Positions 925 to 45,239 of a stretch of 45,283 bases of DNA are shown piece by piece. The notes beneath the pieces were generated by a model. The model saw nothing but the letters and a program-made list of their open reading frames with translations. It was not told where the DNA came from and did not search any database. The DNA is taken from NCBI GenBank assembly GCA_041686025.1, contig JAWLEP010000007.1, positions 20,290 to 65,572 of the forward strand, written 5' to 3'. The DNA is from Candidatus Fermentibacteraceae bacterium. GTDB lineage: Bacteria > Fermentibacterota > Fermentibacteria > Fermentibacterales > JCC-6. Within the stretch, counting starts at the first letter, position 1. The number at the start of each line of letters is the position of its first letter. The position numbers and the translations under genes are program-made.

Positions 925-970
925 CTTGTCGGACTGAACACCTGAAATCTGAGAGAGGGAGGCTTTGGGG

Positions 971-1987
971 ATGATGAGATGGCTGCTGGTCTTTGCCCTG
1001 GCCCTGGCGGCGCTGGCCGCCGCCGCGGACCGGGTAGTCCTCCTGGAGGACTTCACGAACAGCGGGTGCGGTCCCTGCTGGAGCTTCGAGCCCACGCTCA
1101 ACTCCTTCGTCAACGATCACCTGGCTGCGGGTGACCTGGCGGTGATAAGGGTCCACGTGAGCTGGCCCTCCGCCAACGATCCCATCTACCTGGCCAACCC
1201 CACCGAGCAGAACGCCAGGAAGTCCTACTACGGCGTCAACGCCGTCCCCTGGATCCAGTTCGACGGAGTCATCAAGGCCAGCACCAGTGGAGCCGGGCTC
1301 AACAACGCCTTCAACAACAGGATAGACGTGCCCACCAACCTCAGCATCTTCGTGGCCCGTAACGGCGACGACCAGACGGGAACCATCAGCGTAGGCCTGG
1401 TGGCCGAGGACGAGATAGAGACCAGCGTCCCCATAAGGCTGTTCGCCACCGTGGTGGAGGACGAGGTGCCGGGCGCGGGCTACTGGTCGGGCGACTACTT
1501 CTACCAGGCCTTCCGCAAAAACCTGTTCGGAGTGGCGGGCCCGGAGGTGGATTTCAGCGGCCCCTACCCGGACACGATCTACTTCGAGACGGAGTACGAT
1601 ATCACCGACTGGGTGGCCGACAACCTGCACCTGGCCACCTTCGTCCAGGAGTACTCGAGCTCCGACAAGGAGGTCATCAACGCCCGCTACGACAAGTTCA
1701 TGGACCTGCAGACGGGCATAGAGGGCGGCTGGCTGATGCCGCAGTCACCCCAGATGACCCTGGGGCCCAACCCCTCCAGCGGAACGGTCTCCGTGACCCC
1801 CATGCTTCCCGAGGGTGCGGCCGGCACGGTAACCGTCTACGACGTCTCCGGCCGCCGGGTGGCCGCCGGGCGAGCGGTGAACGGCGTTCCCGGAAGCTTC
1901 GACCTTGGCGCCTCCGGCGTTTACCTGGTAAGGCTGACCACGGACTCCGGAGCCGCGGTCTCCCGCACGGTGGCCGTTATCAGATAG
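971..1987 (+). CDS. Omp28-like thioredoxin-fold secreted protein with T9SS-type C-terminal sorting domain
   Basis: Signal peptide; VLLEDFTNSGCGPC (CxxC); YGVNAVP cis-Pro loop; C-terminal PNPSSG...VYDVSGRRV...SGVYLVRL tail. Confidence 0.8.
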   Translation: MMRWLLVFALALAALAAAADRVVLLEDFTNSGCGPCWSFEPTLNSFVNDHLAAGDLAVIRVHVSWPSANDPIYLANPTEQNARKSYYGVNAVPWIQFDGVIKASTSGAGLNNAFNNRIDVPTNLSIFVARNGDDQTGTISVGLVAEDEIETSVPIRLFATVVEDEVPGAGYWSGDYFYQAFRKNLFGVAGPEVDFSGPYPDTIYFETEYDITDWVADNLHLATFVQEYSSSDKEVINARYDKFMDLQTGIEGGWLMPQSPQMTLGPNPSSGTVSVTPMLPEGAAGTVTVYDVSGRRVAAGRAVNGVPGSFDLGASGVYLVRLTTDSGAAVSRTVAVIR

Positions 1988-5976: not shown

Positions 5977-6866
5977 TGCGGCAGGCGGCCCTGGTGACTG
6001 TGGCGGTCCTGACGACCCTCTCCTGCGGAGGGGGCGGGCCCTCCCGCTCCGGCGACATCCCCCTGGTCATGGTGAGCATACCGCCGCAGGAGTACTTCGT
6101 GGAGAGGATCGCCGGCGGAAGGGTGGAGGTAGACGCGGCCCTTCCTCCGGGGGCCAGCCCTGCCACCTACGAGCCCGGGCCTGCGGAGATGCGGCAGGTG
6201 TCGGAGGCCGACCTCTACCTCTCCATAGGCGTCCCCTTCGAGAGCGCCTGGCTGCCCAGGCTGGAGTCCGCCAACCCCGACCTGCCCGTCGTGGCCACCC
6301 ATCGGGGAGTGGACCGGCGCCCCATAGACAGGTACGGCGCCCACGCCGAAGGGGAAGAGCACGGCCACGGCCATGAGCACGGCTCACCCGACCCGCACAT
6401 CTGGCTCTCCCCCGAGCTGGTGAGGCTGCAGGCGGACACCATAGCGGCGGCCCTTGCCCGACTGGACCCCGGGGGGGACAGCGCCTACGCCGTCAACCTG
6501 GCTTCCTTCGGGCGGGAGATAGACAGCCTGCAGACCGGAATCAGGGCCGTACTGGAGGCGGTCCGGGGGGACACCTTCGTGGTCTTCCACCCCTCATGGG
6601 GCTACTTCGCCGACGAGTTCGGCCTGTACCAGCTACCCATCGAGGTGCGGGGCCAGGAGCCCTCCCCCTCCGAGCTGGCCAGGCTCGTGGAGGTAGCGGA
6701 GGGACTCTCCGATCCCGTGGTGCTGGTGGCGCCCCAGTTCAGCCGCCGCTCGGCGCAGACCCTGGCCGGGGAGATAGGGGCCCGGCTGGAGGAGGCAGAC
6801 CCCCTGGCCCGGGACTGGGCCTCCAGCCTGCAGGCGGTGGCCAGGCGGATCGCGGGCAGCCGATGA
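5973..6866 (+). CDS. znuA: Zinc ABC transporter substrate-binding lipoprotein
   Basis: Lipobox TLSC; His-rich loop HAEGEEHGHGHEHG; DPHIWLSP; FHPSWGYFA. Confidence 0.9.
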   Translation: MMRQAALVTVAVLTTLSCGGGGPSRSGDIPLVMVSIPPQEYFVERIAGGRVEVDAALPPGASPATYEPGPAEMRQVSEADLYLSIGVPFESAWLPRLESANPDLPVVATHRGVDRRPIDRYGAHAEGEEHGHGHEHGSPDPHIWLSPELVRLQADTIAAALARLDPGGDSAYAVNLASFGREIDSLQTGIRAVLEAVRGDTFVVFHPSWGYFADEFGLYQLPIEVRGQEPSPSELARLVEVAEGLSDPVVLVAPQFSRRSAQTLAGEIGARLEEADPLARDWASSLQAVARRIAGSR

Positions 6867-39712: not shown

Positions 39713-40249
39713 TCAGCGGTATCCGTGCATCCCGCCTCCGGGACCTCCGTGGGAACCACCTGCGGGAGGACCCTCCTCCACCATCTCCGCCAGCCTGGCC
39801 AGCTGCTCCTCGGTGAGCAGGTCGTGGATGTCCGCCAGGGCCCGGGCGACGATGCGACGAATGCTGTCCCGGGTCTCGTCCCGCTCCGCCATCAGCTCCA
39901 GCACCTCCGACTCGCTGAGATCCGGCGAGGCGAAGAGCTCCAGCATGCGGCGCCGGCCGTCGTCGCTGCGGGTGCCCTCGATCTCGGCGCGGATGTCGTC
40001 CCGGGCCTCCTCGAACACCGTTCGGATCTCCCCGCGCTGCTCCTCCGTCAGGTCCAGGGCGCCCAGCAGGCGCAGGAAGCCACCCAGCTGGGCCATCTCC
40101 GCAGGCCCCTCGGAGATCCGGGGCCTTCCGCCCCCCCGGGGGCCGCCCGCCTCGCCCATCATGGGCTGGGCCGAGGCCGCCGCGGCCAGCATCAGCGCCG
40201 CCGCTGCGGTTATCATGGCCGTCCTTCGGAATCCCTTCCTCATGTCCAT
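39713..40249 (-). CDS. Spy/CpxP-family periplasmic protein
   Basis: Signal peptide; two LTxxQ motifs (LDLTEEQR, LLTEEQL). Confidence 0.85.
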   Translation of the reverse strand: MDMRKGFRRTAMITAAAALMLAAAASAQPMMGEAGGPRGGGRPRISEGPAEMAQLGGFLRLLGALDLTEEQRGEIRTVFEEARDDIRAEIEGTRSDDGRRRMLELFASPDLSESEVLELMAERDETRDSIRRIVARALADIHDLLTEEQLARLAEMVEEGPPAGGSHGGPGGGMHGYR

Positions 40250-40468
40250 CACTCTCCCTTTCTTGCGAAGTGAATGCCCCAGGCCGAGGAATCGTAGTCG
40301 TCCTCCACCTGGTCGCTCATGGTATCGGAATCGATTACGTCCACCGCCACGAAGCTCCGCCTGGTCACATTCTCGGCGTACCATTCGTAGCTGTAGACGC
40401 CGTCCCCGGCCACCAGGTCTCCGTAGAGGCCGTCATCGCCGAGAGAATGCCGCTGCCGTCGCCTTCAT
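40249..40468 (-). pseudogene. Internally deleted secreted-protein gene
   Basis: AGGAGG RBS and ATG MKATAAA stop after 11 codons; another frame reads LGDDGLYGDLVAGDGVYSYEW...WGIHFARKGE-TGA and overlaps the Spy start. Confidence 0.6.
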
Positions 40469-40617: not shown

Positions 40618-40695
40618 TGGCGGACCGGACGGGACTCGAACCCGCAGCTTCCGGCGTGACAGGCCGGTGCTCTAACCAGATTGAACTACCGGTCC
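40618..40695 (-). tRNA. tRNA-Asp(GTC)
   Basis: GGACCGG acceptor stem, anticodon loop CTGTCAC, GGTTCGAGTCC T arm, encoded CCA. Confidence 0.97.
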
Positions 40696-40865
40696 GCGCA
40701 TGAAGCGTTCATTCAGGGTCGGGAATATCGTCACTGGCCGTGGGATGTCAAGACCGGAGGGGCCTCCTCCGGTCCGGGAACTGTGCAGGCCCGGATGTAT
40801 TTCCTATAATCGAGGTGGACATTATGGCAACGATGTCAACATCCCTTGCGGAAAGGGGATCTGAG

Positions 40866-41483
40866 ATGCTTCGCACCGTACTGGCACTTGGTCTTCTGGC
40901 CTCGGCGGCGCTGGCGGCCGAGGTGGAGGTCGGTACCCCCGACTTCGAGAACAGCCTTCCCTTCTGCGGCGATTGAGCCCAGAGCCTCGACTACCAGTTG
41001 GTAGTCCTGTCCGAGGAGATGGACGGAGCGATGGAGATAGACGCCATCGCCCTGAAGAGACACCCAGACAGCCAGCCCCAGGCGAACTTCCAGCAGCTCA
41101 CCATCAGCATGGGCCTGTGCGAGTCCGACACACTGAGCGACACCTACGAGGACAACTACATCCCGGGTACCAAGACAACCGTTCTTGAAGAGTCGAATTT
41201 CACCGTAGACGCCCCGGCGGGCGACGAGTGGTTCTACGTCAACCTCGAAGAGCCCTACTGGTACAACGGCGAGGATAACCTCATATTGGAGTTCGAATGG
41301 CCGGGCGGCACCGGCTCCCTGTACGTATACCACTGGTTCACCGGCGAGAACCGGGCGGTGAACGGCGGTTACGGCAGCGGCTCGGGCTACCTGGAGGGGA
41401 ACATTCCGCATATGCTCCTGTCCGGGGCACTGAGTTTCGAGCAGACGACATTCGGGAGGATCAAGACGATCCTCATCCAATAG
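40866..41483 (+). CDS. Candidate secreted selenoprotein (CxxU at residues 34-37), 205 aa
   Basis: The two track ORFs (40740-40976 and 40998-41483) share a frame and are separated only by TGA 40974-40976; signal peptide; PFCGD-U-AQSLDYQ; SECIS-like hairpin just downstream; C-terminal TTFGRIK. Confidence 0.75.
40985..41016 (+). promoter_or_regulatory. Putative bacterial SECIS element
   Basis: GACTACC-AGTT-GGTAGTC perfect 7-bp stem; loop begins 19 nt after UGA with G at loop position 2; lower stem CCTC/GAGG. Confidence 0.65.
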
Positions 41484-41500
41484 AGGGCCAGCCGGCGCCG

Positions 41501-41530
41501 GAAGGGGCGGCCGAATGGCCGCCCCTTCTT
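41501..41530 (+). terminator. Hairpin after the selenoprotein candidate
   Basis: GAAGGGGCGGCC-GAAT-GGCCGCCCCTTC, 12-bp stem with short U tail. Confidence 0.65.
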
Positions 41531-41549: not shown

Positions 41550-43238
41550 ATGAAGACCCTGCCGCTGCTTACCCTCCTGGCCATCACGGCCGCCGTATCG
41601 GCCCAGTGCCCGCTGGGCAGGACCCCGGAGACGGCATGCCCGGAAGCCGAGCCGGCATGTGCGCTCTACGTGGACGCCGACGGCGACGGCCTCTGCGACA
41701 ACCCCGGATCTCAGCCCGAAGCCGATGATACCGGCGAGACAGCAGAGACAGCCGCCGACTCCACCGTCGCCGCCCCCGACACAACCACGGAGGAGGAAGC
41801 TGCGGAGCCGGAGGGGGAGGAAGAACAGTCCTTCCCGGACACCACTGTCGCCGAAGACGCCACTCCGGAGCCTGCAGCAGCGCCGGACACGTCGTCTGAC
41901 ACAGGGACCGAACCCGCCGCGGAAGCGTCGGTTTCCATCCCCGCTTCGGAGGAGGATGCGGCCTCTCAGTCCGATACGGCAGCTGCAGTGGAGGGGCGAC
42001 TCCCTGCAGACACCGCCTCTGCCGCCGGGGAAGCAACGGACTGCCCCCTGGGGAGGACGCCGGATGAGGCCTGTCCGGAGAGCGACCCGCTCTGCGTGCT
42101 CTTCGTCGACGCCGACGGCGACGGACTCTGCGACAACCCCGGCCCGCAACCCTCGGATACCCTCGATGTCACCGCTTCCGAGGATACCTCGGCGGCCTCA
42201 TCCACCGAGCAGGAGGCCACCTGCTGCCCCCTGGGCAGGACGCCCGAGACCGCATGCCCCGAGGACGAGCCGCTGTGCGCCCTCTATGTGGACGGAAACG
42301 GAGACGGCCTCTGCGACAACCCCTTCGCCGGACTGACGCAGCCGGTGTGCAGCGTATTCGTGGCCACTCCCAACACCTGCCCCCTCTACCTCAACGCGGA
42401 ATCGGCATGTCCGGACTCCATGGCCCTCTGTCCGCACTGGTACGGAACCGGGCCCGGGGTCAGGTGCGCCAACCCCACCGGCGGCAAGAGGCGGGACATG
42501 ATAGTCCTGATAACACTGGCGGCACTCCTTCCCCTGGCCACCATCATCTCCCGCCATTACGCCTGCCGGGGCCGCAAGTGCTCCAGGGAGCGGGACAGGG
42601 CCCACATGATCATGCACGTGCTCAGCCTCATCGTCCTGGGATTCGTGGTTCAGGGCTGCTACTGCCCGCTGGGGGCCTTCCAGTACCTGTTCCTGCCCGG
42701 CGGCCTGAAGTTCCTGGGGTGGATGGGGCTGGCCATACTGCTTCTGCCCATGGTGTTCGCCCTGTTCTGGGGAAGGGTGTTCTGCGGCTGGGTATGCCCC
42801 CTGGGCGCCCTGCAGGACCTTCTGGGCAGGATCCACGTCCCCGGCAAACCCAGTCTTCCCGCCTGGCTAGACAAGTCCCTCCATTACCTGAAGTACGTCG
42901 TGCTGGCGGGGCTGGTGGCCTACCTCACTGCCGCCGCCCACGGTTCTTTCGCCGAAGGAAGCTGGCCCGCGGTATTCTGCCGGATAGACCCCTTCCACAC
43001 GATCTTCACCGGTTTCCTGGTGGGCCTGCTCTGGCTGGCGGTGCTCACAATTGTACTCTCGATTCTGCTGGGCCGGTTCTTCTGCAAGTACCTCTGCTTC
43101 TACGGTGCGCTGCTCTCGCTGCTCTCCAGGCTGCGCCTGTGGAGGCTTCTCACCGGACCCAGCAGGATGGCCGCCGACGCCGAGGAGGAGATGGAGACAG
43201 AGGAGCGCGAGGTGGAGGAGGGCTCACCGGAGGAGTAG
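41550..43238 (+). CDS. NapH/YccM-like Fe-S membrane protein with exported Cys-rich repeats
   Basis: Signal peptide; repeats CPLGRTP...C...C...DxDGDGLCDNP; membrane part with GCYCP, GRVFCGWVCPLG, RFFCKYLC. Confidence 0.8.
   Translation: MKTLPLLTLLAITAAVSAQCPLGRTPETACPEAEPACALYVDADGDGLCDNPGSQPEADDTGETAETAADSTVAAPDTTTEEEAAEPEGEEEQSFPDTTVAEDATPEPAAAPDTSSDTGTEPAAEASVSIPASEEDAASQSDTAAAVEGRLPADTASAAGEATDCPLGRTPDEACPESDPLCVLFVDADGDGLCDNPGPQPSDTLDVTASEDTSAASSTEQEATCCPLGRTPETACPEDEPLCALYVDGNGDGLCDNPFAGLTQPVCSVFVATPNTCPLYLNAESACPDSMALCPHWYGTGPGVRCANPTGGKRRDMIVLITLAALLPLATIISRHYACRGRKCSRERDRAHMIMHVLSLIVLGFVVQGCYCPLGAFQYLFLPGGLKFLGWMGLAILLLPMVFALFWGRVFCGWVCPLGALQDLLGRIHVPGKPSLPAWLDKSLHYLKYVVLAGLVAYLTAAAHGSFAEGSWPAVFCRIDPFHTIFTGFLVGLLWLAVLTIVLSILLGRFFCKYLCFYGALLSLLSRLRLWRLLTGPSRMAADAEEEMETEEREVEEGSPEE
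41607..42477 (+). repeat. Intragenic repeats of about 100 bp (three full, one degenerate)
   Basis: Copies start near 41607, 42042, 42225 and 42378. Confidence 0.85.
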
Positions 43239-43337
43239 CCACTGCCACTTGACCCGGCCCTGCTGCCGGTTTAGCTCTATTCTGTAAACTCGTCATCACC
43301 GTTGAGGGGTTTCCTGCCCGGGGAACGGAGGGACTCA

Positions 43338-45239
43338 GTGGCAGCGCGAGAGACCTGGAGCAGCAAGACGGCGTTCATACTGGCCGCCATAGGGTCGGCC
43401 ATCGGCCTGGGAAACATCTGGAGGTTTCCCTACATCACCTACGCCAACGGCGGCGGGGCCTTCCTCGTCGCCTACTTCGTATGCCTCTTCCTGGCCGGCA
43501 TACCACTGCTGATGCTGGAGTTCAGCCTGGGACACCAGTCGCAGCGGGCGGCTCCGGGTTCCTTCAAGAGGATAACGCCCCGGCTGGAGTGGTTCGGCTG
43601 GTTCGCCGTGGGCGTGGGTTTCATCATCACCTGCTACTACGCCATCATCATGTCCTGGTGCGTGAACTACACCTTCGAGGCGGCAACGCTGGGCTGGGAG
43701 CAGGAGCACGGCCAGTACGCCCAGGAGGAGATGGCGGTAATGGAGACCGACCTGGAGGACTACGAGGTCCTCACTCCGGTACCGGATGACATGGCCGGAA
43801 TCCCCTTCGTCTCGGCCATCGACTCCGTGGCGGACGTGATCGTTCCGGAGGCCACCACCCTGGTCAGCTACCGGGGTGATATCTTCGGATTCCCCACCCG
43901 GGAGGAGGCGGAGGCCTTCCTGGACAGCCCCTGCGGCGACGGCACCTGCGCCATCGAGCCGGCGGGCGACAACGTCAGCCACATACTGGACCGGGTGCCC
44001 GACAACCTGGTGGGCAAGCCTTACGTATCGCCCTATTCCGGTACGGAGGACGTGGTCAGGAAAGTATCCACCATTCTGGTTGCCTACGAAGGCCACCTCT
44101 ACGCCTTCGGCAACGTCGACGAGGCCAGCGCCTTCATGGGCTCGCCGGGGGACTACTTCTACAACGACTTCCTGGGGCTCACCGACACGCCCTGGAGGAT
44201 GGGCGACTTCAAGTGGTACCTGTTCATCGGCTTCGCCATCTCCTGGGTATGGATCATCGCCTCCATATGGAAGGGCACCAAGACGGTGAGCAAGGTGGTC
44301 TACTTCACCGTCCTGATCCCCTGGGGCCTGCTGATCCTTTTCATCATACGGGGGGTGACGCTGCCCGGCTCGGGGACCGGCCTGGCCTTCTACCTCACAC
44401 CCGTGTGGAGCAAGCTCATGGACCCGTCCATCTGGCTGGCCGCCATCAGCCAGGTGTTCTTCAGCCTCAGCGTGGGCTTTGCCATCATGATCGCCTACGG
44501 AAGCTTCCTGCCCCAGAAGACCGACCTGGCCGGCAACGCCTTCATCATCGGCATAGCCGACGCCCTCACCGCCTTCATGGGGGGGCTGGCGGTGTTCAGC
44601 GCTCTGGGCTACCAGGCCAGCAAGCTGGGAGTGCCGGTGACCGAGGTGGTGCAGTCCGGGCCCGGCCTCACCTTCGTGGCCTACCCCCACATCATCAGCG
44701 GCCTGCCGGGTGCGCGGATATTCGGGGTGCTGTTCTTCCTGATGCTGCTGACGCTGGCGGTGGACTCCGCGTTCAGCCTGGTGGAGGCGGTCACCTCCTC
44801 GGTGAAGGACAAGTGGAAGACCACCCACAAGCGCGCCAACCTGACAGTGGGCGCCATCGCCTTCCTGCTGGGCCTGCCCATGCTCACCGGGGCCGGCCTG
44901 CACATACTGGACATCGCCGACCACTTCATGAACAGCTTCGGCCTGACGCTGGTGGTGCTGGGCGAGGTGATCATCCTCGGCTGGGGAGTGGGCGCGGCGA
45001 AGCAGAGGGAGTACATCAACAGGTACTCCTCGTTCCGGGTGGGCCCCTGGTGGGACATCTGCGTGCGGTGGATCATCCCCATGGGCATCCTCTGGATGCT
45101 GTACAGCGAGATACAGGACAGAACCGTCCCCTACGGCAGCTTCGGCCTGCGGGGAATGGAGTTCGCCTTCGGCTGGCTGCTGATCATACTGCTGCCCATC
45201 GTGGCGGACATCATGGCCAACGCAAAGGCCCGCGAGTAA
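43338..45239 (+). CDS. Sodium-dependent NSS/SNF family transporter with a large extracellular insertion
   Basis: RETWSSK, GSAIGLGNIWRFPY, QVFFSLSVG, GPGLTFVAYP; GTG43338 with GGAGG RBS. Confidence 0.92.
   Translation: MAARETWSSKTAFILAAIGSAIGLGNIWRFPYITYANGGGAFLVAYFVCLFLAGIPLLMLEFSLGHQSQRAAPGSFKRITPRLEWFGWFAVGVGFIITCYYAIIMSWCVNYTFEAATLGWEQEHGQYAQEEMAVMETDLEDYEVLTPVPDDMAGIPFVSAIDSVADVIVPEATTLVSYRGDIFGFPTREEAEAFLDSPCGDGTCAIEPAGDNVSHILDRVPDNLVGKPYVSPYSGTEDVVRKVSTILVAYEGHLYAFGNVDEASAFMGSPGDYFYNDFLGLTDTPWRMGDFKWYLFIGFAISWVWIIASIWKGTKTVSKVVYFTVLIPWGLLILFIIRGVTLPGSGTGLAFYLTPVWSKLMDPSIWLAAISQVFFSLSVGFAIMIAYGSFLPQKTDLAGNAFIIGIADALTAFMGGLAVFSALGYQASKLGVPVTEVVQSGPGLTFVAYPHIISGLPGARIFGVLFFLMLLTLAVDSAFSLVEAVTSSVKDKWKTTHKRANLTVGAIAFLLGLPMLTGAGLHILDIADHFMNSFGLTLVVLGEVIILGWGVGAAKQREYINRYSSFRVGPWWDICVRWIIPMGILWMLYSEIQDRTVPYGSFGLRGMEFAFGWLLIILLPIVADIMANAKARE

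Follow-up and report, generated by a model that had tools for sequence, protein, structure and literature searches.

An in-frame TGA in Candidatus Fermentibacteraceae marks a candidate exported selenoprotein with a predicted jelly-roll fold and a Cys-x-x-Sec motif

Does the TGA at codon 37 of a small open reading frame end a short gene or encode selenocysteine (Sec) in a longer one and, in the latter case, what might such a protein do outside the cytoplasm? The window (the whole stretch of DNA analysed, 45,283 nt from a Candidatus Fermentibacteraceae bacterium) had been covered by a preliminary description, made from the letters alone, that placed a ribosome-binding site and ATG 40866 ahead of a signal peptide, the context ...SLPFCGD-TGA at 40974-40976 and about 168 further codons, for 205 aa in all. 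This layout proved exact, with 168 further open codons before the TAG at 41481-41483. The features of the locus are as follows.

40618..40695, - strand: tRNA-Asp(GTC), divergent upstream neighbour (ARAGORN and Rfam RF00005)
40853..40859, + strand: purine-rich ribosome-binding site AAGGGGA, 6 nt 5' of the ATG, read from the sequence
40866..41483, + strand: whole gene, 205 aa with TGA37 read as Sec
40866..40916, + strand: predicted Sec-pathway signal peptide, residues 1-17, without a lipobox Cys (sequence and hydrophobic N-termini of homologs)
40917..41429, + strand: predicted all-beta jelly-roll domain, CBM/PHR-like (AlphaFold2 pLDDT 95.1, fold and profile searches)
40965..40976, + strand: CxxU motif C34-G-D-U37, TGA at 40974-40976
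40985..41016, + strand: SECIS-like element, 7-bp stem and 4-nt loop (40989-41006) plus a variable lower stem
41430..41480, + strand: [ST][FW]GxIK at the C-terminus, a probable sorting signal, predicted to form a helix carried by a flexible linker (tail in 82 of 84 copies)
41500..41529, + strand: 13-bp terminator-like hairpin between the gene and the NapH-like gene (-29.2 kcal/mol, z = -5.0)
41550..43238, + strand: PF12801 membrane protein of NapH/NosR-like type, its N-terminal part bearing four-Cys repeats on acidic linkers; a conserved neighbour and candidate source of electrons
43302..45239, + strand: sodium:neurotransmitter symporter family transporter (PF00209), start uncertain, less constant neighbour

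Codon usage past the TGA had been called normal, and the GC3 of the frame is indeed 0.75 before it and 0.85 after. Gene callers had been expected to split the gene and lose the signal peptide, which is what the databases hold: seven of eight protein-database matches are the downstream piece without a signal peptide, and the remaining one is the upstream piece ending ...PFCGD. Similarly, 30 of 40 short representatives in databases are truncated 'hypothetical' pieces, which means that the family escapes proteomic and secretome studies of these bacteria from digesters and sediments. Around the gene, an Rfam search matched the tRNA alone and a promoter scan called nothing on the + strand; the hairpin at 41500..41529 is without a long U run and was not called by a terminator scan. 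A similar tRNA sequence lies 5' of the gene in a few orthologous loci (by eye), and on the far side of the tRNA-Asp is a Spy/CpxP-like periplasmic chaperone gene (window 39713-40384, - strand; weak NCBIfam matches). Contigs of RNA libraries span the 40866 gene but not the next gene, and two of them start at 40863. These contigs were not counted as expression evidence, because assembled contigs show neither strand, level nor start, and there was no silent control.

The preliminary description had named three ways in which its proposal could fail: a sequencing error, a genome without selABCD, and homologs with Trp, Tyr or Arg at the site. The in-frame TGA is no assembly error. It is covered by contigs of three of four other runs (one DNA and two RNA libraries, from three studies), all without any other letter; the check used assembled contigs, not raw reads, and the fourth run's contig starts downstream. 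The genome, 94.75% complete, holds selA, selB and selD together with a canonical tRNA-Sec that has G73 and a long variable arm, and its selD has an in-frame TGA and hairpin of its own. Across the phylum, selB was found in 64 of 70 genomes and in 46 of the 46 high-quality ones. A genome-wide reading of UGA as Trp or Gly was ruled out, since TGA is the commonest stop of the genome (it ends 321 of the 648 long ORFs) and is also where 32 of the 84 family genes terminate.

Homologs address the third point. They occur in 68 of the 70 genomes of the phylum (Fermentibacterota), up to 10 per genome and frequently as tandem pairs; clusters of homologs bear the labels Ca. Fermentibacterota, Fermentibacteraceae or Aegiribacteria. 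Among the 150 matches listed (168 more lie beyond), 129 have one TGA and 21 have none, 3 of these 21 being partial. The site codon was examined in 86 copies and is TGA in 68, Cys in 18 and nothing else, a set in which Cys is over-represented because it was picked to include all 18 full-length stop-free copies, along with the 40866 gene and one degenerate paralog. Mapping by a motif that requires Cys at -3 places 84 copies (66 TGA, 15 TGC, 3 TGT); the two that fail it also have TGA, without Cys at -3, and both CxxU positions are invariant in 69 aligned copies. On a quick tree the Sec/Cys label needs four changes, at least two of which are forced by strong branches. Nine metagenome loci are full family members, retrieved with a TGA-containing pattern that could find TGA forms only, and a genome-contig search with a single protein query gave one locus only, in a same-genus relative. 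The degenerate paralog lies in this same genome (G000:C6:21697-21969, - strand); it keeps CAS-TGA, the hairpin and the tail, and is without about 105 internal residues and an obvious start.

The hairpin supplies a second line of evidence. A perfect stem of GACTACC (40989-40995) and GGTAGTC (41000-41006) around the loop AGTT, beginning 19 nt 3' of the TGA, stands as first described; the lower CCTC/GAGG arms, at 40985 and 41013, are present too, but they vary among homologs, conservation being confined to the upper stem-loop. The folding energy of the 22-nt hairpin is -10.5 kcal/mol (z = -4.5), which none of 200 shuffles equalled, and larger windows around it give z of -1.8 to -4.5. Alone it proves little, because a hairpin fitting the same model follows 665 of the 52,559 TGA triplets of the genome (1.3%). 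It rises above chance because it is kept in TGA-bearing homologs and lost in Cys-bearing ones. With duplicates removed and G-U counted as a pair, at least six of the seven stem pairs are kept in 63/63 TGA genes versus 1/18 Cys genes, and the inner five in 62/63 versus 0/18. All seven are kept in 44 of the 63 TGA genes (70% observed against 1.5% under random synonymous codons). One stem pair is compensatory, C-G in 50 TGA genes and U-A in 13, with the U-A form at three or more places on the tree (by inspection). The 40866 gene carries G-C where most family genes carry C-G, and because of this rarer base pair a strict SECIS pattern gave 0 matches in the genome. Loop position 2 is G in 63/63 TGA genes, and the spacing from TGA to hairpin is 19 nt in 61 of them and 22 nt in 2. 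No p-value is attached to this conservation, because the relatives are not independent. The bacterial SECIS consensus, as given in the available text of PMC13188914, has a loop of 3-9 nt with G among its first two nucleotides, 16-37 nt from the UGA, and an MFE <= -7.5; the element fits it, with a 4-nt loop, 19 nt, -10.5 kcal/mol and G at loop position 2. Given the alternation of TGA with Cys only, a hairpin tied to TGA and the Sec machinery, the proposal of a selenoprotein is well supported, and SelB very probably binds the hairpin and inserts Sec37. Were translation to stop at the TGA, a stub of 36 residues would result, and the full protein could thus be made only with selenium available.

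Known families offer no name for this protein. As first noted, it matches no recognised selenoprotein family: Pfam and NCBIfam gave no significant match for the 40866 protein or 69 members (best NCBIfam E no better than 0.04), and a PDB sequence search gave nothing significant. A search of the ESM Atlas with a natural Cys homolog returned only unnamed Fermentibacterota clusters, named clusters below 0.9 being set aside. Table 1 of PMC13188914, the part of that source used here, lists 119 selenoprotein families, including those of Haft and Tolstoy 2025. None of the 119 shares the motif context or, by name and domain id, the fold; GenBank-only entries were compared by name and motif. In searches that had most subscription journals outside their scope, no publication on Fermentibacter selenoproteins was found, and the word 'selenocysteine' is absent from the Hyd24-12/Fermentibacter literature searched. 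Likewise, no relevant publication was found linking selenoproteins with type IX secretion (the sole match is unrelated) and none on a sorting signal in Poribacteria. The gene stands as a selenoprotein candidate with good support, and its family and fold have apparently not been described before.

Structure prediction can indicate where the motif sits. For the mature part, with Cys standing in for Sec, AlphaFold2 predicts an all-beta sandwich (pLDDT 95.1, pTM 0.88) with CxxU in a loop between two strands and the last helix on a less confident linker. The sequence around the motif had been described as not thioredoxin-like, with structure prediction suggested as a check, and the model agrees: judged at pLDDT 95, it has neither the alpha/beta architecture nor the motif at a helix start that define a thioredoxin fold. 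No thioredoxin appears in the fold-search lists, an absence that by itself excludes nothing. The best matches are the Bxb1 tail tip 9d93 (Z 11.2, rmsd 5.3, 160 aligned), the N-terminal domains of two esterases, 7tog and 9kqz (Z 10.3 and 10.0, rmsd 3.3, about 150 aligned), the PHR domain 3gbw (Z 9.6) and the Cwp84 lectin-like domain 4ci7 (Z 9.2). The predicted fold is therefore a carbohydrate-binding-module/PHR-like (lectin-like) jelly-roll beta-sandwich; because the top matches are near-tied, no single fold family was picked and no ligand was inferred.

Profile searches place this domain in a wider context. At E <= 0.001 they found 4,702 representatives; among the best 150 of these, 110 are large proteins bearing the module, mostly as a repeat, and many of the 31 matches scanned also carry DNRLRE, choice-of-anchor (D/J) or type IX tail domains. 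The 40866 domain is clearly homologous to this unnamed repeat module of large surface proteins, with PF...Q..Y and LDTPF.Y.G..NL motifs in common, but CxxC stands at the motif site in just 1 of 348 scored large-protein domains and the short tail in 0 of 110 long proteins. Therefore, CxxU appears to have been added in the stand-alone form. There, some members have lost the first Cys while retaining Sec or Cys at the second position, a pattern in keeping with a reactive Sec whose partner is dispensable; variants with adjacent CU also exist.

How would such a protein leave the cell? A hydrophobic N-terminus, read from the sequence, starts all copies and supports the signal peptide first claimed for the 40866 protein, which is highly likely to carry it across the inner membrane. 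At the other end, [ST][FW]GxIK closes 82 of 84 family copies, and no family model matches this tail. The motif has 24 matches in the genome, 22 plausible by eye and 2 implausible; about 20 unrelated proteins (e.g., C21:22100-23653 and C41:19961-21290) end in it, most with apparent signal peptides. In the case of a second family, 3 of 27 members have [ST][FW]GxIK where the other 24 have a type IX-like domain (called on one member). Because of this swap the tail is probably a sorting signal, possibly an undescribed one, and there is a somewhat better than even case that it sorts the protein onward, probably via the type IX system. The type IX C-terminal domain (TIGR04183/PF18962) has no match in the 40866 protein, which is not among the 76 type IX tail matches of the genome; of the apparatus, SprA and four PorV-family genes scored over the cut-off.

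Genomic neighbours can give insight into partners. The NapH/NosR-like (PF12801) gene that follows the 40866 gene is present in 61 of 70 genomes, and a co-directional family member lies upstream of it, no more than about 1.7 kb from the matched part, in 54 of 56 assessable genomes and is absent in two. The 54 comprise 44 genomes by listed coordinates (all with one TGA) and 10 more from fetched sequence, with 5 at a contig edge excluded. This linkage may be inherited gene order, because all genomes belong to one order, and the two genes may not share a transcript, because the strong 13-bp hairpin separates them. The NapH-like protein has CxxxCP-type motifs and is without a C-terminal ferredoxin domain; its four-Cys repeat, which is unnamed and has a DxDGD-type motif, occurs 2-4 times, set on acidic linkers. 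Cys copies keep other company: none of the 18 has a NapH-like gene in its flank and 15 stand beside a secreted Omp28-like CxxC protein, a linkage of about three independent events. Two TGA copies adjoin a TGA-bearing Omp28-like gene. An Omp28-like CxxC protein with a type IX tail, of the type that neighbours the Cys forms in other genomes, also lies in this window at about 950-1970 (+ strand; G000:C7:21317-22255).

Among 13 wide loci, the symporter directly follows the NapH-like gene in 8, and 11 have a CcdA/DsbD-like gene no further than about 7 kb away (4 by Pfam, 7 by eye). The same cluster has ferredoxin-domain proteins with export signals and a protein of about 400 residues of no known family, possibly a beta-barrel. 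Here, this set stands just past the window, convergent, at G000:C7:65500-71200. It encodes a pair of ferredoxin-domain proteins that bear export signals, an unnamed secreted protein of 399 aa, a CcdA/DsbD-like protein and, in addition, a citrate-lyase ACP/beta-like fusion, with N runs between genes.

What does the motif do? We put a probability of about 0.5 on a redox site outside the cytoplasm, in which Sec is inserted and Cys-x-x-Sec is displayed by an exported lectin-like beta-sandwich. Reactivity would lie with Sec37, and Cys34 would resolve it, the pair cycling between a reduced and a Se-S-bonded state. The beta-sandwich would offer the surface to which a substrate in the envelope or outside the cell binds (protein disulfides, polysulfide or peroxide). 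Re-reduction would come from the linked NapH-like membrane protein via its outward Cys-rich repeats or, alternatively, from secreted Omp28-like CxxC/UxxC proteins. This proposal is supported by the near absence of CxxC from the module in large proteins, by the variants that keep only the second position, and by the Omp28-like neighbours of the Cys copies. The nearby CcdA/DsbD-like gene and ferredoxin-domain proteins with export signals also favour it, as does the constancy of the NapH-like linkage, PF12801 proteins being described as likely electron carriers across the membrane in the accessible part of PMC8238504. DsbB and VKOR were searched for in the genome and neither was found, while a DsbD-type domain was, and for this reason we lean to reduction over structural disulfides. 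Several points speak against a redox site: the closest folds are binding modules, not oxidoreductases; the NapH-like gene is not in the fetched flanks (of varying length) of 34 of 66 TGA copies; and the NapH-like neighbour has no C-terminal ferredoxin domain. Moreover, should the tail carry the protein as far as the surface, it would be out of direct reach for a donor in the inner membrane.

The fact that the closest folds are CBM-like esterase domains, the Cwp84 lectin-like domain and phage tail-tip domains suggests a different role for inserted Sec, in which C34-U37 would be a permanent structural Se-S staple stiffening the binding loop of a surface lectin or adhesin. In sulfidic sediment, a Se-S bond is harder to reduce than a disulfide. 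The occurrence of the module as a repeat in large surface proteins agrees with such a staple, the diverged paralogs, as many as 10 in a genome, are consistent with a repertoire of binding proteins, and two other exported TGA families of this genome are non-enzymatic scaffolds with Cys beside the TGA. However, variants with the second position only or with adjacent CU exist, which speaks against a staple; the neighbours are reductive, and the failure to find DsbB or VKOR in a genome 94.75% complete also tells against it. We consider a staple a real but minority possibility. Alternatively, with Sec inserted, CxxU could bind soft metals or metalloids (Hg, Cu, As) or serve in selenium/sulfur carriage, in an exported scavenger or chaperone. 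CxxC metal chaperones have their motif in a loop, as the motif here lies in a loop between two strands. Some tandem pairs are near an ArsC-like/rhodanese gene (5 loci), one pair is near a methyltransferase with a Cys-rich N-terminus (ArsM-like by eye), and the four-Cys repeats of the neighbour could bind metal. The arsenic-type neighbours are nevertheless confined to a few related genomes and no metal transporter is conserved beside the main locus. We consider this role slightly less likely than a staple. Finally, it is very improbable that the TGA is something other than Sec, whether a genuine stop within a pseudogene or a split gene, an error of sequencing, or a codon recoded as Cys, Trp or Gly: TGA is the commonest stop here and a degenerate paralog exists in the same genome, but a single TGA at the same position in dozens of paralogs at about 40% identity, swapped only with Cys, the hairpin tied to it, the canonical tRNA-Sec, the same TGA in other sequencing runs, and a downstream piece that is without the signal peptide and the first predicted strands all argue against it.

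Other exported TGA families were found in the same genome. A genome-wide screen covered 18,473 frames, of which 79 were coding-like and 9 had a hairpin; 6 of these 9 were dropped as apparent shadow frames or ordinary stops. The screen is not a full selenoproteome, because selD and the Omp28-like gene were missed. One family is an exported NHL-type propeller protein (G000:C24:20843-21832, + strand) with CGG-TGA, a conserved hairpin and a type IX tail, whose homologs occur in 67 of 70 genomes and have TGA at the site in 27 of 27 examined. Another is an exported FG-GAP repeat protein (G000:C39:16300-17502, + strand; paralog G000:C35:26910-27824) with G-TGA-C and a conserved hairpin; homologs occur in 62 of 70 genomes with TGA in 31 of 33 aligned stretches, the others being one GAA with the hairpin kept and one distant match. 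An Omp28-like protein (G000:C46:16410-17400, + strand) has TGA-x-x-Cys directly after the signal peptide and a type IX tail; 52 of 70 genomes have matches, almost all of which contain a single TGA. On the same contig, a TGA at 6677 (+ strand) joins a 429-codon open frame to a type IX-tailed frame (…GDG-TGA-GDA…), and a simple scan found no hairpin there.

Together with the 40866 family, the NHL-type, FG-GAP and Omp28-like families suggest a heavy selenium demand at the cell envelope. A bolder and rather doubtful extension is that Fermentibacterota run a selenium-based surface redox layer of at least four exported selenoprotein families (jelly-roll CxxU, NHL-propeller CGGU, FG-GAP-propeller GUC and Omp28-like UxxC), which together likely count at least 10 genes in many genomes. 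These would exit via type IX secretion, with a classical tail or the undescribed short [ST][FW]GxIK signal, and would be kept reduced along a haem-free route made up of membrane proteins of NapH-like and CcdA-like type together with exported ferredoxins and a beta-barrel. For the 40866 family itself, the candidate adds a fold that is absent, going by names and domain ids, from the 119-family list in Table 1 of PMC13188914, and in it a Sec motif appears to have been placed on a surface module that is not catalytic. The family is spread across the phylum in multiple copies, and its natural Sec/Cys pairs can be used to test what selenium adds outside the cell.

Compared with known systems, the gene resembles E. 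coli fdhF-type genes, decoded by SelB from a SECIS within the ORF, in its in-frame UGA and small G-containing loop 16-37 nt downstream (the distance given in the available text of PMC13188914), and SelB/SECIS-decoded selenoproteins in general in its Sec/Cys homolog pairs and complete selABCD. CxxU is shared with the SelW-like, GrdA and AhpD-like proteins and with the TonB-dependent receptor of FCYXU type, NF049945, the last also an envelope protein with an aromatic residue preceding the Cys. Unlike all of these, the 40866 protein is predicted to be all-beta with the motif in an inter-strand loop, and it has no sequence match to their models. Selenoprotein export has a precedent in the SAO proteins (SaoB, SaoX and SaoC; Haft and Gwadz, 10.1101/2022.07.06.499078), which carry a signal peptide and Sec. 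According to the accessible part of that source, they are ABC-binding or lipoprotein types, mostly of monoderm anaerobes, whereas the 40866 protein lacks a lipobox, is predicted to fold as a jelly-roll and ends in a C-terminal tail, and its genome carries genes for type IX secretion. As in the NapH-like extracytosolic electron-transfer systems described in the available text of PMC8238504, a PF12801 membrane protein is encoded beside an exported putative redox protein; here, however, four-Cys repeats stand where related proteins have an FMN-binding domain, the partner is a candidate selenoprotein, and the electron path is deduced from gene linkage. With carbohydrate-binding modules and lectins, the predicted model shares the jelly-roll, and CBM-like and PHR jelly-roll domains superpose on it at Z 9.2-11.2 and rmsd 3.2-5.3 over 139-160 residues, with only 6-13% identity.
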